Positions 1,471-59,611 of a stretch of 64,000 bases of DNA are shown piece by piece; within the stretch, counting starts at the first letter, position 1, and each line of letters begins with the position of its first letter. The notes under the pieces were generated by a model. It made no database searches, was not told the origin of the DNA, and saw nothing but the letters and a program-made list of their open reading frames with translations. Location of the stretch: assembly GCA_002753735.1 (NCBI GenBank), contig PEAN01000010.1, forward strand, positions 6,937 through 70,936. The letters run 5' to 3'. Source of the DNA: Magnetococcales bacterium DCbin4 (GTDB taxonomy: Bacteria; Pseudomonadota; Magnetococcia; Magnetococcales; UBA8363). The translations under genes and the position numbers were made by a program.

Positions 1471-2112
1471 TCATGCCTTGGCACCCATTTTCTTCTTGAG
1501 TTCATCTAAGAAGCGCCTCGCCCAAGGTGACGCAGCACTGATCTTGCCTGGATCTATTATTGCGAGAAGTTTGAACGAATGCTCGCCTTTGCCATAGGGA
1601 GCCTTCGTCTTGCAATTGCCGCTCGCCTTGTCCAATCCATCATAGATCTGGGGCTTTAAAACACCTTCAATCGCATTCGCAGCCGCAGGAAGTAAATGAC
1701 TCTTGAAGCCCTGTCCGAAGAACTCCTTCAGAACATCGCGATCAGCAAGAAACCAACTTTCCATGACCTGCACCATGAGGTGACAATCAGTATCAAGACT
1801 GCCGTTGGGCTTTTCCCAACCATCGCCTTTGCGTTGCTTCAGGTGCTGCCATGGAAGCCACGTCTCGGGTTTCGCCGAATCCGACTGATACTCTGCGGCA
1901 ACAGACTCCTCGCTATCCACAAGCAGCATCGCATCTTCACCATGGCTGATCGCCGTGCAGAAAGACTCGTAGGCGTCTTTGCGGCTGCCACAAGCGACAA
2001 CCCGCGGACGCATGTTCAGTCCAGCATGGGTGATGAACGTCGAGAAACCCTCACGGCATGCTGCCTTAAGGGCAGCGGTATCGCCGCCACCTTCTACGTA
2101 GCGTTTTACCAA
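1471..2112 (-). CDS. DUF4276-like protein, putative TOPRIM-related partner of the upstream ATPase
   Basis: 213 aa. N-terminal YVEGGGD and later MLLVDSEE acidic motifs resemble a TOPRIM-style Glu plus DxD/E pair. The start overlaps the stop of the ATPase gene by 7 nt. Confidence 0.6.
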   Translation of the reverse strand: MVKRYVEGGGDTAALKAACREGFSTFITHAGLNMRPRVVACGSRKDAYESFCTAISHGEDAMLLVDSEESVAAEYQSDSAKPETWLPWQHLKQRKGDGWEKPNGSLDTDCHLMVQVMESWFLADRDVLKEFFGQGFKSHLLPAAANAIEGVLKPQIYDGLDKASGNCKTKAPYGKGEHSFKLLAIIDPGKISAASPWARRFLDELKKKMGAKA

Positions 2113-3281
2113 CGGACCCCCCCGATCTCACCTCGCGACCATAACTGCCCAAGGCGATATTTTTCAAGCCACGGTTTCAGTTTTTCGGCGTCCAGGCGTT
2201 CGAGCGTCGTACCGTTCTCAGTACGTCCAGCAACCAATATGGCTTCAGGCATGTCCGTCATCGCATCCACCAGGACATCGGAATGGGTCGTGACAATGAG
2301 TTGGGTTCGCTCGGAAGCTTTTTTCAAAAGCTGCGCCAAAGTCGGCAGAACATCGGGGTGCAGGCCAAGCTCCGGCTCCTCGATGCACACCAGAGGTCCC
2401 GGATTGGGGTGACAGAGGATCGCCAACAAACAAAGGTAGCGCAGTGTGCCATCTGAGAGACGGGTCGCAGGGATGGCATTGCGCCCCTCGTGGAAGAACA
2501 CTTGCACCGTTCCGCCTTCGATCTGGACATCAAAGTCATCGATACCGTCATACAAGATACGTAAAGCCTCCAACAACCGCTTCTTGACGACAGGTTCTCT
2601 GCGTAGGCGATTCAGAACCAAGCCGAAGTTGCTTGCATCGAGTTCCAAGTACTCGTTAGGTAAATCTGCCTTTTGTGGAAGGCGCTGCACCGTGTTGCGA
2701 CCGAAGTTCCATTCTCGATACAGCCGGAACTTGCTGAAGGTATTGCCCAAATAGGTCAGTTCCGGATACTGGTCCGGATCCTTGCGTTGCGACAAGATGG
2801 ATGCCGTGGGTTCGATCTCTTCATGTTGCAAGCGACGCTGCTGACCCTTGATGTTCAATACACCATGGCCATTTTCAAATCGGTAGTAGAAATACGGGCG
2901 AGCATGGCCATCATCCGTTTTTTCATTTTCGACATATTCATCAATGATTTCAAAACGCTGCCCGACCTCTGAAAAACTCAGGACATAACGGAGATCAACC
3001 GACCCCTTGGGATTGTCGAATACGGCATTGATCTTGGCGACGGGGATTTTGGCCGCGCCCTTCCAAAGCCAGTCTCGTACACCACCACCATCGCGAATAG
3101 CGGCGAGCAGATTGGATTTTTCCGAGGTGCTTGGGGCGGATCGAATGAGATCAATCGCTTCAATCAGATTGGATTTGCCCGATCCATTGGGCCCAATCAC
3201 AACGTTAAGCTGCCTCAGTTCGATGGGTGACGACGTCTCTCCAAAACTCAAAAAATTTTCGAGATGAATCGATTTAAGCAT
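2106..3281 (-). CDS. SMC/ABC-type AAA ATPase (AAA_21/AAA_15-like)
   Basis: MLKSIHLENFLSFGE, Walker A GPNGSGKSN, signature-like LSDGTLRYL, Walker B LVCIEEPELGLHP, H-loop TTHS. Start trimmed to the ATGATG at 3284/3281. Confidence 0.8.
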   Translation of the reverse strand: MLKSIHLENFLSFGETSSPIELRQLNVVIGPNGSGKSNLIEAIDLIRSAPSTSEKSNLLAAIRDGGGVRDWLWKGAAKIPVAKINAVFDNPKGSVDLRYVLSFSEVGQRFEIIDEYVENEKTDDGHARPYFYYRFENGHGVLNIKGQQRRLQHEEIEPTASILSQRKDPDQYPELTYLGNTFSKFRLYREWNFGRNTVQRLPQKADLPNEYLELDASNFGLVLNRLRREPVVKKRLLEALRILYDGIDDFDVQIEGGTVQVFFHEGRNAIPATRLSDGTLRYLCLLAILCHPNPGPLVCIEEPELGLHPDVLPTLAQLLKKASERTQLIVTTHSDVLVDAMTDMPEAILVAGRTENGTTLERLDAEKLKPWLEKYRLGQLWSRGEIGGVRW

Positions 3282-3438
3282 CATGACGACACCCATTGAA
3301 TCGATTACGAACCGAAATCCCCGCTGAGACGAATTCAGGGGGATTGGACCGGGCAGCGATTTCATAACCGAAACGCCCCAGATCAGATCGCGTTGATCTG
3401 TCTTCAGCAAGGGGGCACCCACTGGGACAGTTCATGAT

Positions 3439-5420: not shown

Positions 5421-5461
5421 CTGACACCCCATGACCGCCATTTCCCAACCTTGGAGTCGTT

Positions 5462-6301: not shown

Positions 6302-6348
6302 TCCCGCGCCCCAAGAGATTCGGCATCCAGACCTTGGAGTAACGTCAC

Positions 6349-7749: not shown

Positions 7750-7804
7750 CAATGCATGGTAATTGCCATGGAAGTTTGGCAATCTTTTAAATCGCCTATA
7801 TATA

Positions 7805-7876: not shown

Positions 7877-8017
7877 CATGGAGAAATATTGAAGTATAAA
7901 TGTCTGGCGAGCAGTAAATAATCATGGTAGATTTATTTCATGTGGTGATAAAAATTTCAACCGACGCAATGTACCACTTCCATTTTTTTAACACAAAAAA
8001 AACGGAGATTATCAACG

Positions 8018-9778
8018 ATGGCAAGCATGCTCCGAAAAATGCGTTTCCGCACTTTGATTATTCTTGTGTTCACCATTTCATACAGCGTCTTAGATCGGGT
8101 GATCAGTCTGAATTTTCGCGCCATCGGCGAAGTCAGGGACATGGGCCGACAATTACATAATGGCCCGATCAAACAACAGATTTTTTGGCAGGATATCGTC
8201 TTGGGTGTGCAAAAGGCGGAAGGGTTACGGCACCAATTCAGGCTGGACCACCATGCTGAAACGGTGCAACAGATGGAACAACTGGTAACAGAAATCAAAG
8301 GATCCTTGAGCACGCAGGGTAGCAAAGGTGACCAGAATGCATTTTTCGTGATGGTTGAATTGGATCAATATCACAAAGAATTCCTCGAACTGGTCGAAAC
8401 CCGAACTCAGTTGGACCAGTCCCGGGCGCAACTGGTCAAGAAACGGGAAGGGGTGGAAACCCTCATCTATGAAGCGGACAACGCTGGACTGGAAAAAGCG
8501 TTGGAAGAATTCATCATTGTCGAAATGACCTTTTTTACCGAGACCTCTTCTGGAGCCAAGATCAAAGGGGTACGGGTCATGCTGGATCGGCTGGATCGAG
8601 ACGGGGCTTCGATCAAAGATGAAAAGACCCGGTCTGGCCTGACCCGGGCGGTATCAGAATATCGAAAAGAATTCAATGCGCTTCTTGATTTTCAGGGACA
8701 AATGGCAAGCCGTTCCGAAGCCTTGCGCGACAGTGCCCAGCAGATGGTGAAAGATGTCAATGCAAGCACGGAACAGTCGCGCAACGAGGCGGAAACCGCA
8801 GCTCAGGCAGCCGACCAAATGGCACAGGATGCCCGCATGACCGCGTTGCTTTGGACATCCATCGGCATTGTCATCTCATTGCTGATGGCCGTGGGATTCG
8901 AACGCCGGATCAATCATCAGTTGGGTAGTGACCCGATTGAACTCGTGAATATTGTTCGTAACGTTGCGGATGGCAACCTGGTGGATGCGGTCAACAACAC
9001 CTGTGAAGGAACATCGGGTGTGATGTGCGATCTGCGGGGCATGTCGGTGCATTTGCGCTCGACGGTCACCGAAGTATTGGAAATCGCCCGGGGTGTGGAT
9101 GAGGGAGCCCAGGAAATGACAACCAACACCCGTATTCTGACCGATGGTGCCGTTGCCCAGGCCACGGCGATTGAACAGACTTCGGCAAGCATGGAAGAGA
9201 TCACGACCCTGGTCCGTTCCAACAGTGAAAGTGCCCGGCAGACGGAAGAAAAGGCCAATCAGGCAGCAACCGAGGCCCAGGAAAGTGGGACTGCGGTCAG
9301 TCGGGCGGTCAATGCCATGCGCGACATTGCCGGACGGGTGACGATCATCCAGGAAATCGCCCGCATGACCAACTTGTTGGCCTTGAATGCCGCCATTGAA
9401 GCGGCGCGGGCGGGAGAGCATGGGCGAGGATTTGCAGTCGTTTCATCCGAAGTGCGCAAACTGGCACAACGCAGTCAGGTGGCGGCGGGTGAAATCGATG
9501 CCTTGGCCAATTCAAGCCTTCAGGTGGCTGAGGATGCGGGTAATCGGATCCAAAGACTCTTGCCCACCATTCTTGAAACGGCCGAACAGGTTCGCTCCAT
9601 TGCTGCGGCGGGAAACAATCAGGAATCACATATTGGCCAAATCGATCAAGGGATCAAAAAGTTGGAGGCTGTGATCATGGCAAATCGTGAAGCGACTGAA
9701 CGAATTGCCTCCACAGCGGAGCTTCTTTCACAAAAGGCGGCACAACTCCCTGAAGAGTTGTCATTCTTCCGGGTTTGA
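8018..9778 (+). CDS. methyl-accepting chemotaxis protein
   Basis: N-terminal TM helix, roughly 250-aa periplasmic region, second TM ([18 protein letters not shown]), HAMP. Signalling hairpin [34 protein letters not shown]. Confidence 0.9.
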
Positions 9779-9925
9779 ACCCTGTTCAAAAAATAAGGCT
9801 CTTCCAGCGTTAGATGTGGTTGAATTGTGGAACCATTGCAAAACAGTCACTTTTTCTACTTTATCACATTCATTGATCAGGGATTATTGACAAAGTAGAA
9901 TTACAAAGCGTGAGGCATGACCAAA

Positions 9926-9945
9926 TGCGGCCCCGAAGGGCCGCA
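9926..9945 (-). terminator. GC-rich hairpin just downstream of the G/W-rich protein gene
   Basis: TGCGGCCC-cgaa-GGGCCGCA, a perfect 8-bp stem 13 nt after the stop at 9958. Only a weak T tract follows on the minus strand. Confidence 0.4.
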
Positions 9946-9957
9946 CGGTAAGACCTG

Positions 9958-10440
9958 TTATTGTTGCTGGGCAGCAGGAGCCGCTTCTTCGGCACCCTGG
10001 GGAGCCGCAGCGGGAGGAGCACCCCAACCGGGAGCACCACCCCAAGCACCCGGACCACCCGGACCAGCCGGACCGCCCCAAGCACCCGGACCGCCGCCCC
10101 AACCACCCGGACCACCCCAACCACCCGGACCACCCCAACCACCCGGATATCCGCCGTAAGGGCCGTAGCCATAACCGTTGTTCCAACCGTTGTTATTGTT
10201 CCAACCGTTGTTCCAACCATTATTGCCCGATCCGCCACCATCACCGCTCATGTTGAAACCGAAATTACCGGACGCACGACCGTTGCCAGTGCCGTTGCCG
10301 TTGTTCATCCAATTATTTCCCCAGTTGCCATTGTTATAGCCGGGGCCGTTACCCCACCAAGCCATGGCATCATCAGCGTTCATCATCACGACGCCCCCCA
10401 AAAGGGCCGCCACGGCCAACGTGGTCAATGTCTTCTTCAT
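9958..10440 (-). CDS. secreted Gly/Trp/Asn-rich repeat protein (sulfur-globule-protein-like architecture)
   Basis: Signal peptide MKKTLTTLAVAALLGGVVMMNADDAMA. Then WWGNGPGYNNGNWGNNW, central GNFGFNMSGDGGG, GWNN repeats, GGPGGW x3 (18-bp DNA tandem at about 10099-10150). Ala/Pro/Gln tail. Confidence 0.8.
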   Translation of the reverse strand: MKKTLTTLAVAALLGGVVMMNADDAMAWWGNGPGYNNGNWGNNWMNNGNGTGNGRASGNFGFNMSGDGGGSGNNGWNNGWNNNNGWNNGYGYGPYGGYPGGWGGPGGWGGPGGWGGGPGAWGGPAGPGGPGAWGGAPGWGAPPAAAPQGAEEAAPAAQQQ

Positions 10441-10510
10441 AGATTCGTTTCCTTACTCACATGGTTGATAAAAAAACACAAATCAAAAAATTCACTACCT
10501 TTTGAACAAA

Positions 10511-10933
10511 CTACCATCCCCAACCGCCGGGGCCACCCCAACGTCCAGGACCCCAGCCACCTGGACCACCCCAATTACCAGGACCCCAACCAACCGGACC
10601 ACCCCAACCCCCCGGGCCCCAGCCATTGTTACCCCAGCCATTGTTGCCCCAGCCATTGTTGCCCCAACCGTTGTTCCAACCGTTGTTCCACATATTGTTC
10701 CAGCCATCGCGGGTCAATCCTTCGAGATCCCCCTCCATGGTGAAATTCAAACGCGCCGTACCCCGCCCCCGACCATCGTTATTCCAATTATTTCCCCAAT
10801 TCCCCCCCCCATTGTTCCAACCCGGACCATCACCCCAACCCGGTCCCCACCAGGCAACGGATTCACTGGAAATCAGCATGCCAATGACCCCGATCAGAAC
10901 GGCCAAAACCGTCATTTGCAATTTTTTATTCAT
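10511..10933 (-). CDS. secreted Gly/Trp/Asn-rich repeat protein, paralog of 9958..10440
   Basis: Start at ATG 10933 (MNKKLQ) preceded by GAGGAG. Signal peptide ends SESVA-WWG. Central LNFTMEGD. GNNGW x3 (15-bp tandem at about 10619-10699). GGPGGWG repeats. Ends GGWGW. Confidence 0.8.
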   Translation of the reverse strand: MNKKLQMTVLAVLIGVIGMLISSESVAWWGPGWGDGPGWNNGGGNWGNNWNNDGRGRGTARLNFTMEGDLEGLTRDGWNNMWNNGWNNGWGNNGWGNNGWGNNGWGPGGWGGPVGWGPGNWGGPGGWGPGRWGGPGGWGW

Positions 10934-11116
10934 CCATCGACTCCTCATCCCGACAAAAAAAAAGCACCTTCCCCAGCAGCCCGCCAAAACGCCCTGGGGG
11001 TCTCAATGTCTCCAAAATATTCGTGTATGGACTAAAAACTAAAACAGGAATAAAGGTGGAAAAGAACAACCCAAGCCCTTCGTACACCCCGGCGCAACCC
11101 CACGCACCGACGTTTC

Positions 11117-11794
11117 CTACCATCGCCCCCCATCCCAATCGCCATATCCCCCATTGCCCCAGGGCCGCTCCTCCCACCCACGAGGGGGTCCATATGAGCG
11201 ATCCCCTCCCAATCCATGATCTGGGGCGCCCATATTGGGATTCACCGGAGAACCGTCACGGCCAAAACGCCAATCTCCACCCTCAGGACCTGCCCACCCG
11301 CCTGGATCGTGTTCCCAAGGGGCGATTGCTCCGGAACCATAATAATTCCGCCTCCGTTCCCAATCCCAATCGGCATGGGACGAAGAAGAGCCCCAAGGAT
11401 CATATTCCATCAAAGGCGAATTCCAATACCCCCACTGATTGGCACCCCATGGATCATACATGGGCACCGGTGTTCGATACCGATAGACATTCCTTCCATT
11501 TCCTTCAACCGGGCCATACCTCCGTTCATCAGCCTGCGGCGCATACCTGCCATCAGAAGCGCCTGCACTGCCCCGGTTCCCATCCACCCCTCCGGTCACA
11601 CCGGCATCACGCTTTGCACCGGACTTGCCCATTTCCTGCATGAAAGATCCCATGAACCGGCCAAACCGCTCACCCATATCCTGCAACTCACCATGGGCCG
11701 GAGCTTCACCACAATGGCCAAGTCCATTCCATAACAAAAGCACCTGAAAGAAACACCCAAAAACGATCAACCGTGTCATCAAGCTTTTTACCAT
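11117..11794 (-). CDS. secreted low-complexity W/G/D/R/P-rich protein
   Basis: Hydrophobic N-terminus MVKSLMTRLIVFGCFFQVLLLW. Then YDPWGANQWGYW, EYDPWG, DWDWERRR, GGDWRFGRDG. Ends DWDGGRW. Start uncertain (11794 or 11779). Confidence 0.6.
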   Translation of the reverse strand: MVKSLMTRLIVFGCFFQVLLLWNGLGHCGEAPAHGELQDMGERFGRFMGSFMQEMGKSGAKRDAGVTGGVDGNRGSAGASDGRYAPQADERRYGPVEGNGRNVYRYRTPVPMYDPWGANQWGYWNSPLMEYDPWGSSSSHADWDWERRRNYYGSGAIAPWEHDPGGWAGPEGGDWRFGRDGSPVNPNMGAPDHGLGGDRSYGPPRGWEERPWGNGGYGDWDGGRW

Positions 11795-11981
11795 GGCTCC
11801 CGGCAAGAAATGTTCCCTTTCCCTGTGTAAAATCCAATGCCATCGCCCCCATTTTATTATGACCACCATGCCACCTGAAAACCAGGATATATATTTTGAA
11901 TTTTTCATTATTCGAATATTATAAAATTCTAATATACAGACTGGGAGCACACTTTGCAAGAAAATAATCGGCGTTCCATCC

Positions 11982-12659
11982 TCATTTTTTCACCCCATCC
12001 GCCTGTGGAGGGGCACTGACTTTCTGAAATCCCGCCGGTAGATCAAACAAGGATTGAGGTTGCGCACCCTGTTTAAGGTTTTCCATATTCACTTCCAGGC
12101 CATCCACATAGGCTTCACGAATGGCAATTTTCAATCCAACATCCACCCACATCCGGGCATAAGGTTCAATCGAACCACCAGGGGCTGACGAACGCAACGA
12201 AATATCCCATAAACGGGTTTCACGCCCACCGATTGCCTGAACCCCCATCTCCCTGCAAACGAACTGAGGATCCTTGCGACACGGACTTTCCTGTTCATCC
12301 GGCATGGGTGGGCGACCGATGACCATCCCCTCGCTGACCGTATATACCTTCTGTTGCGGAAACAACGTCCAAACCAATTTTTCTTCGGGTTTGAAGATCA
12401 TCCATACCTTCTGTCCCGCCCGTTCACCTTCAGTCCGGACACCATGACGTCCCACATACATCCTTCCTTGGGTCACCCTGTTGTTTTCCTTTGTGTTCCT
12501 TCGCACAACATCCGCCGAAAATTCGTAAACCTCTGCGTCACCCTTTTCCGCCGCCGCTGCCAAGGTTGGCAGCCCGGCACAACAAAATACAGCCAAAAGC
12601 ACACCCCGAACCCACAAACGCTTAAGCGCCGAAGAAACCAATTGAATCGTAAAATTCAT
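11982..12659 (-). CDS. hypothetical periplasmic protein (ordinary composition, possibly LolA-like fold)
   Basis: Signal peptide LLAVFCCAGLPTLAAAAE. Globular composition unlike its neighbours. No motif I can name. Start set at MNFTIQL (12659). Confidence 0.55.
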   Translation of the reverse strand: MNFTIQLVSSALKRLWVRGVLLAVFCCAGLPTLAAAAEKGDAEVYEFSADVVRRNTKENNRVTQGRMYVGRHGVRTEGERAGQKVWMIFKPEEKLVWTLFPQQKVYTVSEGMVIGRPPMPDEQESPCRKDPQFVCREMGVQAIGGRETRLWDISLRSSAPGGSIEPYARMWVDVGLKIAIREAYVDGLEVNMENLKQGAQPQSLFDLPAGFQKVSAPPQADGVKK

Positions 12660-12954
12660 GAAATTCTGCCTGTGGAGACGATTGACCGGTATTGACATTC
12701 AAATAACAAAAAATGATTGGTAAATTGCATCAAGTCCATATTATGATTTAATACCATCACGGCAGCCTTGTCACACGATTTAAGATTTAAATAAAAAACA
12801 CCAGTTGGTTGAGGACAGGGCGTTGTCACGCATGATTGACCAATCACCCAAATTTCGGATCTCAAGCATGCGCCTGACAGGACGGAAACAACGCATAACT
12901 TGCTGGCGACTGGAAAGCAGGAAAACAATGTTTTTTACCATTCACCCGTTGGCA

Positions 12955-13808: not shown

Positions 13809-15047
13809 TCATCGCCACGGACCACGTACCGACCCCCCATCGGGATAATAACCACCCGGCCAGGAATAGGGATCATATCCCGGTCCATATCCCAAATCAT
13901 TCCCACGAAAGCCATCCCCTGGCCTCATCCACCCATCATAAGCAGGATTCAACCCCGGACTCGGAATCTCCCAGCTTCGATCACCACGATTCTCCCACCC
14001 CCCCGTCCACGAAAAACTGGAACCGCTTCCATTGCTTCCCATTCTCGAATCACCCACCCCCCCAGGGGCCACACGTCCCGGATGATCATCGCCATACTGC
14101 GGCCGATAAGGTCCGGAACCATATTCATAAGGATTGGAATCATAGGCCGTTCCCCTGCTTGGATCATCACCCGAACGCCCCTGATCAAGCCTCCCCGCAT
14201 CACCCGAATCGCGGAAACGTCCCTCCCCAACCTCGTCCTGACGAAAGCGACTCCCCGAAGGAGGATAACCATCATCCCGGTATCCATCTCCAGACCAACG
14301 CCCCGTCCCATCAACCGCACCACTTCGACCATCGCCCCAGAACCCCCGTGGCGGTTCCGCATGGACATCACGGCGCTGCTGCTTGCGCAAAAAATAAGGG
14401 TCAATCTCACGACGAGGGTCCAGCGTTTCCGAATCATAGAACTGATCCGAAGCCCCTGATCGATCAAAGTCGAAACGCCCCTCCCCGGATGAATCCCGCT
14501 CCGATCCCGATCCCACCCCCCGATCCTCACCAAATCTTGGATCGGGCAGTTTGCCATCACCATACCTCGGATCGGGCAGTCTGCCATCACCAAACCTCGG
14601 ATCGGGCAGTTTGCCATCACCAAACCTCGGATCGGGCAGTTTGCCATCACCCTCATTGCGAAATTCAGGCGGTGGATCCCAATAACGACTCCCCTCACCT
14701 GTATTCCAGCCCCACCCACGATTAGAGGCCGCCGGTGACGGTTGCCCAGTCGTGGTGGACTCCTTCCAACCATATACCCGATGTTCCGTACCAGCACCCG
14801 AAAAACCAACAGTGGCAGGATCGCTCGGCGATCCCTTCACTCCGGAATCATTGCCTTCTCTTCCTTCTTCTCCCATCCTTTGCGAACCGGAGGTGGAAAA
14901 CCGCTCCCCGGAGCTCACTGGACCCTGAACAACCGCCCCTTTCCCTGCCCCCGTTGCAGAAAATTCTCCGGCGGTGCCCACGACCGGGATCAAACCCAAA
15001 ACACACAGAACGAAAGGCAATGACTGTGCGCATGAAATTGGGCGCAT
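13809..15047 (-). CDS. secreted low-complexity G/D/R/P/W/Y-rich protein with decapeptide repeats
   Basis: ATG 15047 overlaps the RND stop (TGATG). Signal peptide MRPISCAQSLPFVLCVLGLIPVVGTAG. GDGKLPDPRF x4. Ends SVRGPWR. Confidence 0.7.
   Translation of the reverse strand: MRPISCAQSLPFVLCVLGLIPVVGTAGEFSATGAGKGAVVQGPVSSGERFSTSGSQRMGEEGREGNDSGVKGSPSDPATVGFSGAGTEHRVYGWKESTTTGQPSPAASNRGWGWNTGEGSRYWDPPPEFRNEGDGKLPDPRFGDGKLPDPRFGDGRLPDPRYGDGKLPDPRFGEDRGVGSGSERDSSGEGRFDFDRSGASDQFYDSETLDPRREIDPYFLRKQQRRDVHAEPPRGFWGDGRSGAVDGTGRWSGDGYRDDGYPPSGSRFRQDEVGEGRFRDSGDAGRLDQGRSGDDPSRGTAYDSNPYEYGSGPYRPQYGDDHPGRVAPGGVGDSRMGSNGSGSSFSWTGGWENRGDRSWEIPSPGLNPAYDGWMRPGDGFRGNDLGYGPGYDPYSWPGGYYPDGGSVRGPWR
14538..14652. 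repeat. 30-bp tandem repeat, about 3.8 copies, inside the coding sequence
   Basis: yGGATCGGGCAGTyTGCCATCACCAwACCT repeated head to tail. Encodes GDG(K/R)LPDPR(F/Y). Confidence 0.9.
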
Positions 15048-18000
15048 CACACCTCCTCGACGGTTCCTTCACCCGGATTCTTCGTCTTCAAACGAATCCC
15101 CCGCCGACCTCCGGTTGCCCCTTGCCCCTTGGATCGCCCCTGCGTTTGTCGCGAGGAAACACCCACATCCGCAGACTCAGGTTCCTTGACCGGCTCCAGC
15201 TCCTTGGGATCAAGCGCCACGGTATCCCTCTCAGCAACACCCGGGTGTTCACCCATGCCCACTTCTTCGACCATCTCCCTGGTCTGAGATTCATGATGAG
15301 TCGGTTCAATCTGATCTGCAACTGCCTCGCGTTCCTGAACCACAGCAGCTTCCTGAACCAAAGCAGCTTCCTGAACCACGACAGCTTCCTGAACCACGAC
15401 AGGCTCCTGAACCAAGACAGCTTCCTGTCCGACAGGATCTTGGACCTCGGCAGCCGCTTTTGGTTCCAACTCAATCTTGGCAGGTGATTCTTCGACCTGT
15501 ACCTGAGCGACCGTTTCCTGAACCATCACCTCGGACACGCCATCAGATTCCTTCGCCACGGCAACATCAACCTTGGGTTTCCGTGAGGTTGACCTCCCTT
15601 TTCCAGAACGCCGCCCCTTTTCTTCCACATCGTCACGCGCAACCTCCTTGCTTGCGACGATCTTGCGCAATTCGCTCTTGGCCCGGGTATAGGAATCCTT
15701 TTCCTCATTCACCGTTTCACTTTCACGCCATTCCACCGGAGCCGGGAGGTCAGGATCACATGCGGCACTGGCCCTGGCCGTCGACACACCACTACCCGGC
15801 CTGGCGAGGAAGCTTTCCGGTTCAGGGTGAACAAAACCACTCTGAGCCGTCACACATCCCAGGGGGATCACCAATAATGTCAACAAGGTGGAAACCAAAG
15901 CACCGAACAACAGCGAAATGGCCATCCCCTGAAAGATGAAATCCCCCAAAATCACGCTCGACCCCGCAACCAGGGCAAAAGCGGTAATCAGGATCGGACG
16001 TGTTCTGGCCTTACACGAAAGAATGACCGCATCCCGTACCGATACCCCTTTGAGGATCTCCTGTTGGGCGAAGTCGACCAACAGGATGGAGTTGCGCACG
16101 ATGATCCCCGCCAACGCAATGAAACCGATCATCGAGGTTGCGGTAAACTTGGCATTCAACAGCCAATGCCCGGGAATGATTCCCAACAGCGTCAACGGGA
16201 TGGGAGCCATGATGATGGCAGGGAGGATGAAGTTGCCAAATTCCCAGACCACCAACATGTAGATCAAAATCAAGGCGGCCCCAAACGCCATCCCCATGTC
16301 ACGGAAGGTTTCATAGGTCACGGTCCACTCGCCGGTCCACTCGAAACCAGACTGACTGTAGTTTTCCGGCGGCCCAAAATAGTTCCCTGAAATGGTCACG
16401 CCATCGGGCGTCTTGTACGTTGCGAGTTTCTCCTCGATCTCCGACATTCCATAGATCGGGGCATCCAAACGACCCGTCACCTCACCCGTGACGAACTCCA
16501 CCGGTCGTAAATCCTTATGGTAGATGATGGGATCTTGAAAATCCTTGATGAAACGTCCCAACTCACCCAATGGAATCGCCGTCCCATCCGGCGCAGAAAT
16601 GGGCAGGTCACTCATGCTGGATACCTTGGAACGAATTTCCAATGGGACCTGAAGGACAATGTAGGTCGGCTCCAGAATGCTCCCCCCTTTCACGTCACCC
16701 AACTGGGCCCCCCCCATCGCCATGGCCAGATTGCGATTGATGGCATCGACCGAGATACCCCGGCGTACCGCTTTTTCGGTATCGACCTCAAAGCGCCAGA
16801 ATTCATACGTTTGCTGGATGTAATTATCCACATCGACAATGCTTTCCGCTTCTTCGAAAAACCGGGTCATCTGTTCTGCCACCTGACGCCGGATCACAGC
16901 GGTCGGACCGGTCACCTCTGCCACGACCGACTGCAACACCGGCGGTCCGGGAGGCATTTCCACAACCTGAATGCGGGCACCCACCTTCTGGGCATAGGGG
17001 GTCAGGAATTCCCGGGTCGCCACCGCCAGATCATGACTGGTCCGTTTGCGATCACGCTTGTGCAACAGTTGCACCTGAATATCGGCCTCCCATGAATTGC
17101 GGCGCATATAGTAATGCCGCACCATCCCGTTGAAATTGAATGGCGAAGCGGTGCCGATATAAGTTTGCAAGGCCGTCACTTCGGGAACCTGACTCTTGAT
17201 CATTTCGGTCATGCGATTGGCCACATTGACCGTCCGTGGCAAAGCGGTCCCCTCGGGCATGTTGATGACCACATTAAACTCGGGTTTGTTGTCCAACGGC
17301 AGAATCTTCACCGTCACGTCAGTGGTATAGAACAAAAACATCGAACCAAAAAATCCCGCCACCAACAAACCCAGAAAGGCAAATCCCTTCACCCGGCTAT
17401 CCAACAGGCTGGGGATGATCCAACGATAAAACCGCTCCAGCCGCTCGACGCTCCGATGTTCCTTTTCCGAGTGAATGTGCAACGAACGCATGCTGGGTTT
17501 GATGAGCTGCGCCAGCCACGGGGTGAAAATGAACGCGGCAAACAATGAGAACAACATCGCCACCGACCCCAGCGCTGGAATCGGCTCCATGTACGGACCC
17601 ATCATCCCGCGGACAAACCCCATCGGCAGCAGGGCCGCAATCACGGTAAAGGTGGCCAGGATCGTGGGATTGCCCACCTCCCGCACCGCATCAATGGAAA
17701 TCAGATGACAGCATTGGTCTTCCAACAGCCAACGCCGATAGATGTTTTCCACCACCACAATGGCGTCGTCCACCAGAATACCGATGGAAAAAATCAGCGC
17801 GAACAACGAAACCCGGTCGATGGTGTACCCCAGGATCCAGGCGGCGAACACCGTCATCAGGATCACCACCGGGATCACCACCAACGTCACGATGGCCGGC
17901 TTGAACCCCAGGGAGTACCAGACCAGGAAGGTCACGGCCATGGTGGCGATCAACAATTTGAACAGCAGTTCGTTCACCTTTTCGTTGGCGGTTTCGCCAT

Positions 18001-19102
18001 AATTGCGGGTGACCGAAACATACACATTGTTGGGAATGAGATGCCCCTTCAACTCTTCCACCTTGGCCAACACCTGATTGGCGACGGTCACCCCGTTGGA
18101 GCCTTTTTTCTTGGCGATGGCCAGGGTTACCGCTGGAACGGAATTGGCCGCAGGGGTTTCCCCCTTGTAGGCGGGCCCGGTGGTGTAGGTCACCATCTGT
18201 TTGGTCTCTTCCGGTCCGGAAAACACCTGGGCCACATCCCGGACATAGACCGGCGAGTTGAACCGGGTTCCAACCATCAGCCGTGAAACATCCTGGGCAC
18301 TCTTGAGGAAGGATCCGGTATAGACCGTGAATCCCTGGTCGCCACTTTCAAGATGACCGATCCCCTGTTCGCTGTTGGCCGTCTTGATGGTTTGCGCAAT
18401 CTGGTCCAGACTGATCCCGAACCCCGACAACCGCTCCGGAAACACCTCCACCCGAATCTGCTCCGCCCGGCCACCGACGATAAACCCCTGGCTGGTATTA
18501 TCCACCTGTTTGATCTGTTGCAGCACATCCAGGGTCAAGGCACGCAAGGCACTGTCGTTGACATCCTCGCTCCACAAGGTCAACGTGACGATGGGAACGT
18601 CGTCCACCGCCTTGGGCTTCACCAGCGGCGGATTCACCCCAGGCGGAACCTTGTCCATGTTGGATTCGATCCGGTCGTACAACTTGACCAGCGATTCCTC
18701 CATATCCTGGCCGACATCAAACTCCACCGTGATCATCGCCTGCCCCCGCATCGATGCGGAATAGACATGCTTGACCCCCGATATTTCACTCATGATCCGT
18801 TCCAACGGATCGGTGACCAATGTCGCCACCTGCTCCGAAGAGGCACCGGGATATTGGACAAAAATATCCACCATCGGTACGGAAATCTGAGGATCCTCCT
18901 GGCGCGGCGTCAATAACAACCCCATCAACCCCATCGCCAGACACGCAAACAAAAACAACGGCGACAATGGCGAATGAATGAAGGCCTTGGCCATGTTGCC
19001 GGCCACGCCAAGGTTATGGTGAGGCCCTTCCATTTTTTCGGGTGGAGGAGGCAACTGACTACCTTTGGAATTGGAGGCTTTGGTCATGGTTCTTGGTTGC
19101 AA
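15047..19102 (-). CDS. RND efflux transporter permease (AcrB/AcrD/AcrF family) with long C-terminal low-complexity extension
   Basis: 12-TM RND layout with two large periplasmic loops (PMVDIFVQYPGAS..., GILVDDAIVVVENI, IALAGIIVRNSILLVDF). About 266 extra acidic residues follow the last TM. Alternative start at 19087. Confidence 0.85.
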   Translation of the reverse strand: MQPRTMTKASNSKGSQLPPPPEKMEGPHHNLGVAGNMAKAFIHSPLSPLFLFACLAMGLMGLLLTPRQEDPQISVPMVDIFVQYPGASSEQVATLVTDPLERIMSEISGVKHVYSASMRGQAMITVEFDVGQDMEESLVKLYDRIESNMDKVPPGVNPPLVKPKAVDDVPIVTLTLWSEDVNDSALRALTLDVLQQIKQVDNTSQGFIVGGRAEQIRVEVFPERLSGFGISLDQIAQTIKTANSEQGIGHLESGDQGFTVYTGSFLKSAQDVSRLMVGTRFNSPVYVRDVAQVFSGPEETKQMVTYTTGPAYKGETPAANSVPAVTLAIAKKKGSNGVTVANQVLAKVEELKGHLIPNNVYVSVTRNYGETANEKVNELLFKLLIATMAVTFLVWYSLGFKPAIVTLVVIPVVILMTVFAAWILGYTIDRVSLFALIFSIGILVDDAIVVVENIYRRWLLEDQCCHLISIDAVREVGNPTILATFTVIAALLPMGFVRGMMGPYMEPIPALGSVAMLFSLFAAFIFTPWLAQLIKPSMRSLHIHSEKEHRSVERLERFYRWIIPSLLDSRVKGFAFLGLLVAGFFGSMFLFYTTDVTVKILPLDNKPEFNVVINMPEGTALPRTVNVANRMTEMIKSQVPEVTALQTYIGTASPFNFNGMVRHYYMRRNSWEADIQVQLLHKRDRKRTSHDLAVATREFLTPYAQKVGARIQVVEMPPGPPVLQSVVAEVTGPTAVIRRQVAEQMTRFFEEAESIVDVDNYIQQTYEFWRFEVDTEKAVRRGISVDAINRNLAMAMGGAQLGDVKGGSILEPTYIVLQVPLEIRSKVSSMSDLPISAPDGTAIPLGELGRFIKDFQDPIIYHKDLRPVEFVTGEVTGRLDAPIYGMSEIEEKLATYKTPDGVTISGNYFGPPENYSQSGFEWTGEWTVTYETFRDMGMAFGAALILIYMLVVWEFGNFILPAIIMAPIPLTLLGIIPGHWLLNAKFTATSMIGFIALAGIIVRNSILLVDFAQQEILKGVSVRDAVILSCKARTRPILITAFALVAGSSVILGDFIFQGMAISLLFGALVSTLLTLLVIPLGCVTAQSGFVHPEPESFLARPGSGVSTARASAACDPDLPAPVEWRESETVNEEKDSYTRAKSELRKIVASKEVARDDVEEKGRRSGKGRSTSRKPKVDVAVAKESDGVSEVMVQETVAQVQVEESPAKIELEPKAAAEVQDPVGQEAVLVQEPVVVQEAVVVQEAALVQEAAVVQEREAVADQIEPTHHESQTREMVEEVGMGEHPGVAERDTVALDPKELEPVKEPESADVGVSSRQTQGRSKGQGATGGRRGIRLKTKNPGEGTVEEV
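15332..15429. repeat. 18-bp tandem repeat, about 5.4 copies, inside the RND tail coding region
   Basis: TTCCTGAACCAnrrCAGC units. Encodes the hexapeptide-periodic run QEAVLVQEPVVVQEAVVVQEAALVQEAAVVQE. Confidence 0.9.
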
Positions 19103-19211
19103 CCGGAAATTAAGGGTGTATGAATGGTATGTGCATTAGTGTTACCGCACCGACCGATCATCGGATTCATCATAACAATCGACAACAAAAATCCGATGCG
19201 TCCGCTCCATG

Positions 19212-19490: not shown

Positions 19491-20726
19491 TCAGAACGAA
19501 GGTGATGGTTTTTCCTCTTCCTTGTCCTTGCCCTGCTGGGTATCCCAGCCTCCGATCATCCCTGCGGGTGGCTCGGCATAAATCTGCTCCCCAACCTGAA
19601 GCCCCGACAACACGCTGACCGAATCGGTTTCCACAAAACCACCCAGCCGGATCATGCGCAGTTCGGGTTCCTTCCCCGGCGTCACAATCAAAACCGCCGG
19701 CAGAGAACCGCGCCAGCTCACCGCCGACTTGGGGATGACAGGCAGACTGCGCACCGGGGTGGTGACGTCAGGAATCATCACCTCGGCATACATTCCCGGC
19801 CCCGCCGGAGAACCCTTGGCCAGATCCAGCTTGACCGTCACGGTATGCCGTTGCGGATCGGCCATGGGAAAGACCTGAGCCACCTTGGTTTCCGCTTCAA
19901 CCCCCCCGACATCAAGCTTGGCCGGAATCAACATCCCTTTTTTGACACCGGGCATGAGACGCGCAGGAATGTCCACCTTGATCTGAAGATGCCGGGTATC
20001 GGCAAAACTCAACAACGGCATCCCCGGCTGCACGGTATCGCCAAGTTCGATATGCTTGGCAACGATCACTCCGGCAAACGGGGAAATGGAACGGGTATCA
20101 CGCAGTTTGGCCTCCAGCTCCTGAAGCGCCGCCTGCGCCTGTGTCAATGCGTAACGGGCCTGGTCGATCTGGGTCCCCTGGGCATAGATCTGCGCCCTCC
20201 GGGTCAGTTCGGGACTGTCCAGCCCGATCATGTCGGACATGGGACGGGTCATCACCCGATCAAACATGCGGGGCATGTCCATCCCCATGTTATCCGAAGC
20301 CATGCTCGAACCCGAATAAACCTGACGGGTATACTGCACCCGGGCATTGCGCCAATTGGCGGTTGCCGTTGCCAATGCCGCCTGCGCCGATCGGCGCTTG
20401 GCCAGCAGGTCATCCTCGTCCAGGGCCACCAACACCACCCCCTTCTTGAACCAATCCCCCTCCACCCCGGCAATGTATTCCACCCGGCCGGGCATCTGGG
20501 CGGCAAACGACACCTCCCGATAGGGAACCACGGTTCCCCCCAGGGTCGTGGTTGCGCCGATGGCCGCTTCCCCCACGGTAATGATCCGGTGCCCACCTCC
20601 CGATGCTGCGGTGCCAACGGTTCCACTACCGGAAGCACTTTCGCCGGCTGCCCATGGCACATCGGGTCGAACAATCCAGACCGCAAGCGCCAGCAACAGC
20701 GCCATCAATGTGATCAATGTCCTCAT
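19491..20726 (-). CDS. efflux RND transporter periplasmic adaptor (MFP/HlyD family)
   Basis: Signal/TM MRTLITLMALLLALAVWI. Lipoyl-like, coiled-coil and beta-barrel layout (GGTVVPYREVSFAAQMPGRVEYI, ALTQAQAALQELEAKL, SISPFAGVIVAKHIELGDTV). Confidence 0.8.
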   Translation of the reverse strand: MRTLITLMALLLALAVWIVRPDVPWAAGESASGSGTVGTAASGGGHRIITVGEAAIGATTTLGGTVVPYREVSFAAQMPGRVEYIAGVEGDWFKKGVVLVALDEDDLLAKRRSAQAALATATANWRNARVQYTRQVYSGSSMASDNMGMDMPRMFDRVMTRPMSDMIGLDSPELTRRAQIYAQGTQIDQARYALTQAQAALQELEAKLRDTRSISPFAGVIVAKHIELGDTVQPGMPLLSFADTRHLQIKVDIPARLMPGVKKGMLIPAKLDVGGVEAETKVAQVFPMADPQRHTVTVKLDLAKGSPAGPGMYAEVMIPDVTTPVRSLPVIPKSAVSWRGSLPAVLIVTPGKEPELRMIRLGGFVETDSVSVLSGLQVGEQIYAEPPAGMIGGWDTQQGKDKEEEKPSPSF

Positions 20727-20839
20727 GGAACAAACCACCTCGCAAATCAGGAAGGGGATCCACCCATCATGACAGTAAATGGAAGCGGCCCGAAAAGACG
20801 CTTCAAGGCAAAACCTTCAGGGCGAATCGGCGCCCGGGT

Positions 20840-21235
20840 TCACACGCGTCCCATCACCGAAAAGGATTTGATGAATGGCGCCGCCATTCGTGGATCCTTG
20901 ATCATGGCACCGTAATCCCCCACGTTGAATTTAAGCTTGCGTGAGGTATAGGCCATGCCAAGACCCATCATGCCGATCCCTTTGGAAATCCATTTTTCCC
21001 AGTTGGCCTTGCTGGCGCGCAGATCCCAATTGAGGGGTTCTCCGTCGTAGGGACCGCTTTTGACGACCTTCCCCTTTTGCACCACAATCACACCGACGGG
21101 TTTGTCATCACCCTCGAAACCGTAGGCAATCGTCGAATTGAAATCGATTTCAGCCAGGGCATCGGAAAGTTCCTTTTCCTTATTCCACTCTTCCTGAAAA
21201 CGGGTCATCCATCCTGCGGAAAACAATTCGGCCAT
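20840..21235 (-). CDS. SCP2 sterol/lipid-binding domain-like protein
   Basis: 131 aa. ATG 21235 preceded by AAGGAG. SCP2-like pattern MAELFSAGWMTRFQEEWN...RASKANWEKWISKG...YTSRKLKFNVGDYGAM. Assignment by resemblance only. Confidence 0.5.
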   Translation of the reverse strand: MAELFSAGWMTRFQEEWNKEKELSDALAEIDFNSTIAYGFEGDDKPVGVIVVQKGKVVKSGPYDGEPLNWDLRASKANWEKWISKGIGMMGLGMAYTSRKLKFNVGDYGAMIKDPRMAAPFIKSFSVMGRV

Positions 21236-21428
21236 TTCAGCTCCTTTTCCTGTCATCAGATAGTTACACTGTACTTTTTCAATATGAGGATGTTTCTTGG
21301 TTTTATTAATTATTTCAAACGTTCCCTTTCATCCTGAAAGCGGTTCAACATACCGCATCACAGCCTGTTTGACAATCCTGAACTTCCCCTTCGGGGCAAA
21401 AAGTGGCTGTGGCGTGATGCAGTGAATC

Positions 21429-56482: not shown

Positions 56483-59400
56483 ATGACAATCCCGATCATG
56501 ACCAAACGTTACCTTGGCGCCATACTCCCCTGGGTGATTCTGCTCACCGGCTTTGCGATCACCGGCCTGCTGCATCACATGGCCCAAAACCATGCCTACA
56601 ACGTATTGCAGGACAATTTTCAGTCCCAGACCCGGGAGATCACCGCGCGGATCAAACAACGGATGATCTCTTATGAGCAGGTTTTATGGGGGATCAAAGG
56701 GTTGTTTGCCGCCTCGGAACAGGTCACCCGCACCGAATTTCACCGCTTTGTGGAAGCACTCCAGTTACCCCTCCAATTCCCGGGGATCCAGGCGGTCGGT
56801 TTTACACGGATCATCCCGCCCCGGGATAAAGAAAAACATATCCAGGAACTCAGAAATGAAGGTTTTCCCCAGTATACCCTCCACCCGGAGGGAGAACGGT
56901 CGATTTATTCCGCCATCACTTATGTGGAACCGTTTTCCGGTCGCAACCTGAAGGCTTTCGGGTTCGACATGTATTCCGAAGCGATCCGCCGCGTCGCCAT
57001 GGAGCGTGCCCGCGATTCAGACCAGGCCGTCATCTCGGGCAAGGTCACCCTGGTGCAGGAAGACCAGCAACAAATTCAGTCCGGATTTTTAATGTATGTC
57101 CCGATCTATGCCAATGGCCCCCCACACACAACCCTCGAAGAGCGCCGGACCCATCTGATCGGCTGGAGTTATGCCGCGTTTCGCATGAACGACCTCATGA
57201 ACGGAATTCTCGGCCATTTGTATGACCATTTCGATCTGGAAATTTACGATCAACCCAACCCGACCCCCGATTCGGTGATGTTCGACGCCGATGGATGGTT
57301 ATCCTTGAATCCCCGGGAGGGGAAATCAACGTTGTTCCAAAGCATGGAGCGTTTGGACCTCGCCAGACATACCTGGAGCATCATCATCCACTCGCTGCCG
57401 ACCCTCGAGGAGCAACTTGACCGGCAACGCCCAAGGATTGTCATGATGTCGGGTCTCCTGACCAGCGTATTGCTGTCACTGCTGGTCTGGTCGTTGGCGA
57501 CAGGTCGAATTCGCGCCCTCAAACTGGCGCACAGGATGACCCATGAACTGCAACAAAGCGAACATCGTTGGAAATTCGCCATCGAAGGGGCGGGCGATGG
57601 ACTCTGGGATTGGGACCTGGTCACTGGAACGGTGTTTTATTCCAAACGATGGAAGGAGATGCTCGGATTTTCGGAACACGAAATCGGGGAACGGTTGGAG
57701 GAGTGGCAACAACGGATCCATCCCGAAGATCAAAACCAGGTATTGGCAAGAATACAGGCGCACCTGAATGGCGAAAAACCGATCTACCAGAGCGAACACC
57801 GGTTTCAGTGCAAGGATGGCCAATGGAAATGGATGCTGGATCGGGGAATGGTGGTCCATTGGGATGCCCATGGCAAACCCAAACGGCTGATCGGCACCCA
57901 TTCCGACATCACCGAACGCAAACAGGCAGAAGATGTCCTGATTCTCTCACGCAAAGTATTCGACAACGTCGGCGAAGCCATCCTGATCACCAATGAAAAG
58001 GGATTGATCACTGACGTCAATCCCGCCTACGAACGGATCACCGGTTACCGCCGGGAGGAACTGTTGGGAAAAAGTCCCGGCACTGCAAAATCGGGACGGC
58101 ACGATGCCGATTTTTATCGCCACATGTGGGAGAAACTGACGCAGGAGGGACGATGGGAAGGGGAAATATGGGATCGGCGCAAGAATGGGGAACTCTTTCC
58201 CAAATGGCTTTCCATCAATGCCATCCGCAACGCCATCGGTGAACTGACCCACTATGTCGGGGTGTTTATCGACATCAGTGACCGCAAGGATGCGGAACAA
58301 AAGTTGGTGCAACTGGCCTTTTACGATCCATTGACGGGACTGCCCAACCGTTTGTTCTTCCGCGACCGCCTGACGCATGAACTGGTCCATGCCGGAAATC
58401 GAGAACACCCCATGGCCTTGATGTTTCTTGATCTGGACCGATTCAAGTGGGTCAACGACACCCTGGGTCATGCCGCCGGCGATGATTTGCTCAAGGAAGT
58501 CGCCAAACGTCTGCAAGGGTGCGTCCAGGACAACGATACGGTCGCACGTCTGGGAGGGGACGAATTCACCATCATCCTGGCCAACGGCCAGGGACCGGAA
58601 CAGGCCACCCTCGTTGCTGAACAGATCATCAATCGGGTTCGCGAACCGATGACCCTCCACGGTCAGGTCGTGCATGTAGGGGTCAGTATCGGGATTGCCG
58701 TTTATCCCGGCGACGCCAGGGAGATGGAAGATTTGATCAAATTTGCCGACATGGCGATGTATCAGGCCAAGGAAGCAGGACGCAACACCTTCCGTTTCGC
58801 CTCCAATGAATTGCATATTCGGGCCTTTGCACGTTTGGCGCTGGAAAGCGACCTGCACCAGGCACTCGACCGGCAGGAACTGGTCCCCTACTATCAACCC
58901 AAGTTTAATCTGCACGACAACCGGTTGATCGGTGCCGAAGCCCTGGTCCGTTGGATCAAACCGGATGGTCGGCTGGTGAACCCCGGTCAATTCATCCCCC
59001 TCGCCGAAGAAACGGGTTTGGTCGTTCCCATGGGTAAATTGATCCGGCAACAAGCCTGCCAATGCACCGCTCAATGGTTTGCAGACCGGGAAACTCCGTT
59101 TGTCATGGCGATCAATCTTTCCTCGCGGGAATTCCAACAACCTGATCTGTTGGCACGCATCCTGGACACATTGGATCAGACCCGCCTCTCCCCGGAACGG
59201 ATGGAGCTGGAGATCACCGAAAGCGCGGTCATGGGCAATCTGGAACAGGCCATCCATATCATGCGAGGATTGCGCGACGCCGGCATCGCCCTGGCGATGG
59301 ACGATTTCGGCACCGGTTATTCATCGTTGGGATATCTTAAAAAATTTCCCCTGAACACCCTCAAGATTGACCAATCCTTCATCCGGGATCTGCCGGGGTG

Positions 59401-59611
59401 TCATGGTGACGGGGCCATTGTGGAAGCGATCCTCTCCATGGCCCACAGCCTGAAATTGAAGGTGGTGGCGGAAGGGGTTGAAACCGTGGCGCAACTGGAA
59501 TATCTGCGGCAGAAAGGGTGTGAAGCGGTTCAGGGATATCTGCTGGGCAAACCGATGCCGGAAAAAGAGTTTGTCCCGCTTTTGGATGCATCCCCATTCA
59601 ACGTGGCCTGA
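56483..59611 (+). CDS. CHASE-PAS-PAS-GGDEF-EAL sensor protein (c-di-GMP turnover)
   Basis: N-terminal TM plus CHASE-like periplasmic domain (ITYVEPFSGRNLKAFGFDM), second TM, two PAS domains, RLGGDEF, EALVRW with DDFGTGYSSL. Confidence 0.9.
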   Translation: MTIPIMTKRYLGAILPWVILLTGFAITGLLHHMAQNHAYNVLQDNFQSQTREITARIKQRMISYEQVLWGIKGLFAASEQVTRTEFHRFVEALQLPLQFPGIQAVGFTRIIPPRDKEKHIQELRNEGFPQYTLHPEGERSIYSAITYVEPFSGRNLKAFGFDMYSEAIRRVAMERARDSDQAVISGKVTLVQEDQQQIQSGFLMYVPIYANGPPHTTLEERRTHLIGWSYAAFRMNDLMNGILGHLYDHFDLEIYDQPNPTPDSVMFDADGWLSLNPREGKSTLFQSMERLDLARHTWSIIIHSLPTLEEQLDRQRPRIVMMSGLLTSVLLSLLVWSLATGRIRALKLAHRMTHELQQSEHRWKFAIEGAGDGLWDWDLVTGTVFYSKRWKEMLGFSEHEIGERLEEWQQRIHPEDQNQVLARIQAHLNGEKPIYQSEHRFQCKDGQWKWMLDRGMVVHWDAHGKPKRLIGTHSDITERKQAEDVLILSRKVFDNVGEAILITNEKGLITDVNPAYERITGYRREELLGKSPGTAKSGRHDADFYRHMWEKLTQEGRWEGEIWDRRKNGELFPKWLSINAIRNAIGELTHYVGVFIDISDRKDAEQKLVQLAFYDPLTGLPNRLFFRDRLTHELVHAGNREHPMALMFLDLDRFKWVNDTLGHAAGDDLLKEVAKRLQGCVQDNDTVARLGGDEFTIILANGQGPEQATLVAEQIINRVREPMTLHGQVVHVGVSIGIAVYPGDAREMEDLIKFADMAMYQAKEAGRNTFRFASNELHIRAFARLALESDLHQALDRQELVPYYQPKFNLHDNRLIGAEALVRWIKPDGRLVNPGQFIPLAEETGLVVPMGKLIRQQACQCTAQWFADRETPFVMAINLSSREFQQPDLLARILDTLDQTRLSPERMELEITESAVMGNLEQAIHIMRGLRDAGIALAMDDFGTGYSSLGYLKKFPLNTLKIDQSFIRDLPGCHGDGAIVEAILSMAHSLKLKVVAEGVETVAQLEYLRQKGCEAVQGYLLGKPMPEKEFVPLLDASPFNVA

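Follow-up and report, generated by a model that had tools for sequence, protein, structure and literature searches.

Does the long C-terminal extension of a resistance-nodulation-division (RND) permease in Magnetococcales bacterium DCbin4 serve a purpose, and if it does, which part of it matters? The gene lies in a stretch of 64,000 nucleotides of contig PEAN01000010.1 (assembly GCA_002753735.1, forward-strand positions 6,937 to 70,936), which is called the window here and whose numbering is used throughout. An initial annotation of this DNA had singled out the acidity and the hexapeptide repeat of the tail and had suggested that the tail might tether the pump to a cytoplasmic partner or scaffold. 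Our analysis points to another element of the same tail, the heptapeptide RRGIRLK close to its end, which is conserved across proteobacterial classes and which in related genomes is kept and lost together with a gene for a small ParF-like ATPase. We give even odds to the proposal that the tail is a flexible tether presenting RRGIRLK as a docking peptide to a ParF-like positioning ATPase.

The body of the protein is an AcrB-type RND core. The Pfam model PF00873 (ACR_tran; AcrB/AcrD/AcrF) matches it with 493 bits against a cut-off of 28, amino acids (aa) 38-1081 covering model positions 2-1015 of 1021, and the solved pumps TriC, MdtB, CmeB and AcrB, which are 1022-1069 aa long, align to its residues 41-1080. 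The aspartate pair of the proton relay in transmembrane helix 4 (TM4) is found in LVDDAIVVVEN, within ILVDDAIVVVEN, and both D437 and D438 are invariant across 70 homologues (alignment A2). The AlphaFold model of a homologue that is ~79% identical in the core (P0013) has the expected pattern of 12 transmembrane helices with beta-rich periplasmic loops. None of the NCBIfam cut-offs for multidrug (HAE1) or heavy-metal (CusA/CzcA) pumps was reached by the window protein: the best model, NF033617, gave 436 bits vs 1250, TIGR00915 gave 267 vs 940 and TIGR00914 gave 248 vs 701. The Pfam scan gave no MMPL (PF03176) match, with ACR_tran and a weak SecD_SecF_C as its only hits. The length given in Table 1 is counted from the first possible start codon, and the in-frame ATGs at 19087, 19033 and 18994 are possible alternative true starts. 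A 1042-aa open reading frame (ORF) at 56483..59611 (+) was considered as a second, tail-less RND control and rejected, as it encodes a CHASE-PAS-GGDEF-EAL signalling protein.

Homology to other RND pumps stops at about residue 1080-1081 and the tail lies beyond it, as had been proposed. In the alignment with E. coli AcrB, residues 5-1023 (of 1049) match residues 41-1080 of the window protein, which leaves ~26 residues in AcrB vs ~270 here. The acidic, E/V/A-rich composition that had been described was likewise recovered (E 15%, V 14.7%, A 10.9%, D+E 20%, K+R 13%; net charge -18), and so were the basic stretch and the 18-bp tandem repeat, which Tandem Repeats Finder (TRF) detected and which encodes (A/V)xVQE(A/P) hexapeptides, EAVLVQEPVVVQEAVVVQEAALVQEAAVVQE. 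The repeat period is divisible by three and the frame is open throughout. It stays open up to the TGA at 15047-15049, and the heptapeptide shortly upstream of this stop is conserved in >100 homologues, so the tail frame must be real and not a chance ORF. Acidity and repeat, which the initial annotation had treated as the key features, are however not conserved. The window tail is the most acidic among 151 unique tails, and it contains six VQE triplets vs none in the aligned tails of the nearest relatives (L006, L007, L028 and L008). Since the repeat is absent even from these, the array is, judging from the alignment, a lineage-specific and recent in-frame expansion of a spacer. The nearest relative of all, L006, is 99% identical to the window protein in TM11-12 vs 56% over the alignable tail, and within the RND gene its blastn alignment is restricted to window positions 15724-19123.

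Nearly all relatives within one RND clade, from Magnetococcales and many Gamma- and Alphaproteobacteria, carry a tail of 107-434 aa, very variable in composition. Among the 120 best homologues (core identity 66-83%, length 1160-1450 aa), which come from Magnetococcales, Gammaproteobacteria (Endothiovibrio, Thiorhodospira) and Alphaproteobacteria (Magnetospirillum), the part past the TM12 anchor measures 107-372 aa, a few contig-truncated proteins excepted, and all those with a complete sequence are long-tailed. The break is sharp in a library clustered at 50% identity: proteins with at least ~60% identity in TM11-12 have tails of 150-550 aa, whereas those with 57% or less end 5-40 aa past TM12, like canonical pumps. 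A scan of species-representative genomes found relatives in at least 560 of them, among others in Beggiatoa, Thiomargarita, Ectothiorhodospiraceae, Granulosicoccaceae, Competibacteraceae, Rhodobacteraceae and Hyphomicrobiales. By these comparisons the long tail is the hallmark of one widespread RND transporter clade. That it is genuinely translated, as had been supposed, is borne out by its presence in almost every member of the clade and by its ending in an in-frame conserved motif. The net charge of the 151 unique tails spans -18 to +50 (median +12), most being net basic and 23% net acidic, and some homologue tails match the low-complexity Pfam models HC2 and extensin. Gamma- and alphaproteobacterial tails open with a hydrophobic or amphipathic segment of 20-50 aa, e.g. 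MVFYLLRAVFILLLEALKGL, which is found in none of the Magnetococcales tails. In L002, L033, L043, L063 and P0042 this segment falls within the first 30-90 tail residues; it might form a hairpin, lie in the plane of the membrane as a helix or cross the membrane once more.

The conserved element, which the initial annotation had overlooked, is RRGIRLK. In the window protein it stands 12 residues before the C-terminus, in the context GGRRGIRLKTKNPGEGTVEEV. The strict pattern was found in 103 of 121 homologues, and the exceptions are mostly near-variants (RRGIRVK, RRGIQLK, HRGIRLK) or truncated proteins. In the 151 unique tails the distance of the motif, or of a near-variant of it, to the C-terminus is 0-30 aa, with a median of 9. 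The 68 loci with the exact heptapeptide use 63 distinct 21-nt sequences for it, with all six arginine and all six leucine codons among them, and so many different codings of the same seven residues imply that selection acts on the protein. No second occurrence was found when all six frames of the window were scanned. In one subclade (P0086, P0088, P0091, P0094 and P0106) RRGIRLK is directly followed by an acidic-aromatic ending, xFDDDFDL, which may be a second short motif.

Structure prediction suggests that the tail is probably disordered. In the AlphaFold model of P0013, built on a 70-sequence alignment, the core has a predicted local distance difference test score (pLDDT) of 80-95 and the predicted template modelling score (pTM) is 0.78, and the tail has a pLDDT of 28-43 and is without secondary structure. 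For a fragment of the window protein with TM12 and the tail (24 sequences), the membrane helices were modelled and the tail stayed mostly at pLDDT 42-57. The sole helix of this tail model is a weak one of low confidence over DSYTRAKSELRKIVASKE (fragment residues 101-118), inside the island that is conserved among the closest Magnetococcales relatives only, and the pLDDT of the motif barely exceeds that of its surroundings. A search of solved structures with the tail sequence gave no relative. The window tail has no hydrophobic segment, and in the established RND topology the C-terminus is inside the cell; the tail is therefore predicted to be cytoplasmic. Docking of the motif back onto the pump was considered and rejected, as AlphaFold leaves the motif disordered in both models, which, coming from monomer models, is weak evidence.

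What might such a motif bind? In more distant relatives the pump cluster continues with a gene for a ParA/MinD-family ATPase of 202-233 aa, closest to ParF and type Ib ParA, often with one for a transmembrane coiled-coil protein, and with one for a membrane-anchored dynamin-like GTPase. The continuation was mapped at L002:16311-19660, L003:18349-19770, L004:14333-16601 and L005:17996-21654; its genes encode the ParF-like ATPase, the coiled-coil protein, which has a conserved KRWELVVYPSL..YSLT segment, a membrane-anchored DUF302 protein and the dynamin-like GTPase, which has two C-terminal membrane helices. The ParF-like family is large and its members carry generic names only. In 53 loci whose tail is complete and whose downstream sequence extends for at least 6 kb, the ATPase gene was nearby in 36 of the 44 motif-positive loci and in none of the nine motif-negative ones (Fisher p = 5e-6, without correction for phylogeny). 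A neighbour-joining tree of the cores distributes the nine loci that lack the motif over about four separate clades, so that motif and ATPase gene were jointly lost at least four times independently, and in two of the nine the tail is gone altogether, with 8 and 19 aa left. Other genes of the cluster are associated with the motif much more weakly: the dynamin-like gene is found in 23/44 motif-positive vs 1/9 motif-negative loci, the gene of a DUF4412-like exported protein in 33/44 vs 5/9, and that of a small SCP-2-like protein in 22/44 vs 4/9. The last pair of counts amounts to no association, and the SCP-2-like protein was rejected as a partner of the motif.

The reverse search gave a similar picture. 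Starting from a profile of the ATPase in metagenomes, a tailed RND protein ending in RRGI[RK]LK was found upstream on the same strand, at a distance of 39-4414 bp, in 20 of 24 loci with at least 5 kb of upstream sequence each. On many short metagenome contigs the tail end with its motif is all of the pump that can be seen beside the ATPase. Together these sequence comparisons establish that the motif is under selection at the protein level and that it co-occurs with the ATPase gene and is lost along with it.

A mechanism that would fit these observations can be outlined. Most of the tail would be a fast-evolving spacer, the length of which matters and the sequence of which does not, and the VQE array would have arisen from a recent slippage expansion of this spacer. 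The tail would hold RRGIRLK out from the inner membrane, as the linker of FtsZ presents its C-terminal peptide. The most likely partner would be the small ParF-like ATPase encoded a few genes downstream in most relatives, and docking of the basic peptide onto the ATP-bound dimer would enable this ATPase to distribute the pump complex within the cell or to localise it. We infer both the physical binding of the motif to the ATPase and positioning as its outcome. The earlier suggestion of a tether to a cytoplasmic partner thus survives as the best reading of the tail, given its disorder, its end motif and the co-occurring ATPase gene, although the partner is deduced from other genomes and is absent in the window itself.

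Several observations weigh against this tether model. The 64-kb window contains neither a Walker A motif of ParA/MinD type nor an ATPase homologue, and the gene is likewise missing from the 9 kb beyond the left edge of the window, read from the 99.6%-identical contig PDZY01000002.1. The three closest genomes also lack the ATPase gene in 7-10 kb of downstream sequence, and the motif is kept in all four. The ATPase gene of this lineage may have moved elsewhere, or the motif may have another partner; a precedent for a moved gene is L011, with the gene on the opposite strand at a distance of 12.6 kb. A Magnetococcales ParF-like protein, P0315, was considered as that of the window's organism and rejected, as it belongs to another metagenome-assembled genome (MAG). 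In addition, the ATPase gene travels with the coiled-coil and dynamin-like genes, either of which could encode the true binding partner, and the joint loss of motif and ATPase gene may therefore reflect loss of a whole module. The partner peptides known for such ATPases are the N-termini of soluble adaptors and not the C-terminus of a polytopic membrane protein. Finally, if the hydrophobic segment of the gamma- and alphaproteobacterial tails formed one extra span, it would place those tails in the periplasm.

The strongest of the other explanations, possible though on balance unlikely, keeps the tail as a tether and RRGIRLK as its docking motif and changes the partner, which would be the coiled-coil protein, the dynamin-like GTPase, anionic lipids or a nucleotide messenger (RRGIR fits RxxxR). 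It would account for the lineage of the window, which retains the motif with no ATPase gene nearby. The coiled-coil gene directly follows the ATPase gene in 56 of 76 loci, and the dynamin-like gene is, as said, enriched among the motif-positive loci. However, Magnetococcales clusters lack the dynamin-like gene and still have the motif, and in the 20 loci with an ATPase gene where the coiled-coil gene was not detected, those checked carry the motif as well. The cleanest association remains that with the ATPase gene, and binding of a lipid or a messenger would leave the joint loss with the downstream module unexplained.

Clearly less probable is a tail with no specific partner at all, working as an entropic bristle or spacer or as an arm that binds polyanions or the nucleoid and regulates how the pumps are spaced or how active they are, so that the motif would be a mere basic patch for contact with membrane or DNA. 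The predicted disorder, the K/A/P-rich and histone H1-like character of many homologue tails, their mostly basic charge and the matches of some of them to HC2 and extensin are all in keeping with it. Yet charge is not conserved, the window tail itself being strongly acidic, and exact conservation of seven residues across classes argues for a specific protein interface, and the motif is lost together with a particular gene. We consider it very improbable that the acidic VQE repeat is itself functional, as a cation- or iron-binding array comparable to the acidic repeat proteins that magnetotactic bacteria have. The host does belong to the magnetotactic order Magnetococcales, and the repeat is in frame and rich in glutamate, but the nearest relatives, with a core identity of 79-90%, do not have it, the window tail is an outlier in its acidity, and no magnetosome genes were seen in the neighbourhood examined. 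An artefact, whether a frameshift, a missed stop codon or a gene fusion by assembly error, would be conceivable in a repetitive region near which a related MAG contig breaks (~13,500), but is excluded for practical purposes by the clade-wide tails in hundreds of genomes: more than 150 independent assemblies have the tail in the same frame with the same end motif, no free-standing tail gene was seen, and the stop codon overlaps the start of the next gene, whose ribosome-binding site lies in the last RND codons.

The features of the permease and the neighbouring genes are collected in Table 1. The RND stop codon (TGA, 15049-15047) overlaps the ATG of the next gene (15047-15045), and the two genes are inferred from this arrangement to be coupled. 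The downstream gene contains a 30-bp tandem repeat at 14527..14651 (4.2 copies, 93% matches) that encodes GDGKLPDPRF four times, and relatives have comparably odd P/R/Y/W-rich secreted proteins at the same position. Further downstream, the three genes for G/W/N/P-repeat proteins produce a strong local GC skew of -0.35, and two of them have homologues at the same position in L003. Family searches with the downstream low-complexity proteins, these three and the neighbour of the pump included, gave no matches; by composition the G/W/N/P-repeat proteins may resemble sulfur-globule envelope proteins. The DUF4412-like gene is one of the conserved genes that follow the pump in the cluster, and its counterparts in relatives match Pfam DUF4412.

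Table 1. Features of the RND locus in the window, with position, strand and supporting detail.
Feature	Position	Strand	Detail
RND permease ORF	15047..19102	-	1351 aa counted from the first possible start, TTG
AcrB-type RND core, aa 38-1081	15860..18991	-	Pfam PF00873, E 2e-147
Cytoplasmic C-terminal tail, 266 aa, aa 1086-1351	15050..15847	-	Counted from the end of TM12 (..IPLGCVT); predicted disordered
Island DSYTRAKSELRKIVASKEVARDDV	15626..15697	-	Conserved among the closest Magnetococcales relatives only (aligned with L006, L007, L028, L008)
Basic stretch KGRRSGKGRSTSRKPK, aa 1162-1177	15572..15619	-	GKGR..RK part retained in nearest relatives
18-bp tandem repeat	15332..15427	-	TRF: 5.3 copies, 84% matches, score 127
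RRGIRLK, aa 1333-1339	15086..15106	-	Proposed docking peptide
Gene junction	15045..15058	-	Last RND codons GAG GAG GTG provide GAGGAGG ribosome-binding site (sequence reading)
Secreted G/D/R/P-rich repeat protein, 413 aa, signal peptide	13809..15050	-	Directly downstream of pump
DUF4412-like exported protein	11982..12698	-	tblastn to DUF4412-like genes of L003/L002, 42% identity, E 1e-39
Three signal-peptide proteins	9958..10440, 10511..10987, 11117..11959	- (all)	Largely G/W/N/P repeats (GWNNGWNN, GGWGGPGGWGG)
Periplasmic adaptor (membrane fusion protein)	19491..20738	-	Pfam HlyD_D23, HlyD_3; TIGR01730 RND_mfp 145 bits vs cut-off 95
Small cytoplasmic SCP-2-like protein	20840..21256	-	NCBI name 'SCP-2 sterol transfer family protein'

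Upstream of the pump, the adaptor gene is present in all 53 of the related loci, and no outer-membrane factor gene adjoins the pump. In roughly half of the related clusters the SCP-2-like gene precedes that of the adaptor. Its product probably starts at the second methionine of the ORF, going by the homologues, which are 131 aa long and share 63-75% identity across classes (Magnetococcales vs Gammaproteobacteria). The presence of this neighbour hints that the substrate of the pump is a lipid or another hydrophobic compound. At 1471..3422 (-), the window also contains an adjacent pair of genes for a DUF4276 protein and an AAA_21/AAA_15/SMC_N ATPase that resembles a two-gene defence-type module. 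Positions 1-11382 of the window are 99.6% identical to PDZY01000002.1 (GCA_002753215.1, a Magnetococcales MAG; L168), which ends near window position ~13,500, within the repetitive low-complexity genes; the window therefore comes from a more contiguous assembly of the same population.

Taken as a whole, the locus leads us to a tentative proposal, in which our confidence falls somewhat short of even, that a ParF-like ATPase positions the inner-membrane RND complex through RRGIRLK and that both belong to an uncharacterised envelope module that is conserved in hundreds of species of proteobacteria. The module would comprise the SCP-2-like carrier, the adaptor, the tailed RND protein, the secreted low-complexity proteins, the DUF4412-like protein, the ParF-like ATPase, the coiled-coil protein and the dynamin-like GTPase. 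A literature search found no description of the RRGIRLK motif, of the tail of this RND clade or of an RND-linked ParA-type ATPase. Each part is of a known kind: RND pumps, disordered tails that end in a short motif, and ParA-like ATPases whose partners bring a basic peptide. What is new is their combination.

The conserved end motif and its genetic partner are thus more interesting than the acidic repeat tail that first drew attention to the gene. RND pumps are mostly regarded as machines complete in themselves that take their place in the membrane passively, and here a clade of at least 560 species-level genomes, spanning Magnetococcales, large sulfur bacteria and marine Alphaproteobacteria, appears to have a conserved built-in tether and a docking peptide with a genetic link to a ParA-type ATPase. 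Should this link prove physical, it would extend the list of ParA/MinD cargoes to membrane transporters, this pump being the first transporter cargo of the ATPase family, and it would mean that a partner peptide can sit at a C-terminus and on the cargo itself. The seven residues would then offer a simple handle on why cells position a pump. The analysis also flags a large unnamed gene module, and for annotation it indicates that the extra ~100-430 residues belong to these proteins and are not errors to be cut away.

How does this pump compare with better known systems? Like AcrB, MdtB, TriC and CmeB, it has a core that is homologous over its full length, the TM4 aspartate pair and an adjacent adaptor gene; those pumps end ~20-40 aa past TM12, whereas the window protein does not. 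Unlike a canonical tripartite RND system, it is clustered with genes for an SCP-2-like protein and for secreted low-complexity proteins, and no outer-membrane factor gene lies next to it. A hypervariable linker of constrained length with a conserved docking end is familiar from FtsZ, with its C-terminal linker and peptide, and from SSB, with its disordered linker and acidic tip. The likeness is one of architecture only, since proteins, motifs and partners are unrelated.

A further parallel may be drawn with the partner proteins of ParA/MinD ATPases; such a partner reaches the ATPase dimer through a disordered, positively charged peptide and thereby links a cargo to it (PMC10241942). As in ParB, ParG, McdB and MinE, RRGIRLK is a short positively charged peptide within a disordered region, and the N-terminus of Caulobacter ParB, MSEGRRGLGRGL (RRGLGRGL), resembles it. 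In contrast to these proteins, the peptide is here C-terminal and sits on the 12-TM cargo itself with no soluble adaptor, and the interaction is proposed from sequence; no centromere- or DNA-binding domain is present, and the ATPase gene is missing from the window.

MmpL3, the mycobacterial lipid transporter of the RND superfamily, has an unstructured C-terminal domain that is dispensable for transport and needed for polar or septal localisation (PMC11092516). It belongs to a different RND family, as the missing MMPL match of the window protein indicates, its partners are Wag31 and PlrA and not a ParA-type ATPase, and an equivalent of RRGIRLK is not described for it. Both are nevertheless RND-superfamily transporters with a long, poorly conserved and apparently unstructured cytoplasmic C-terminal region, and in MmpL3 localisation proceeds via protein partners. 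By analogy, MmpL3 is the nearest precedent among RND-superfamily proteins for the tether proposed here.

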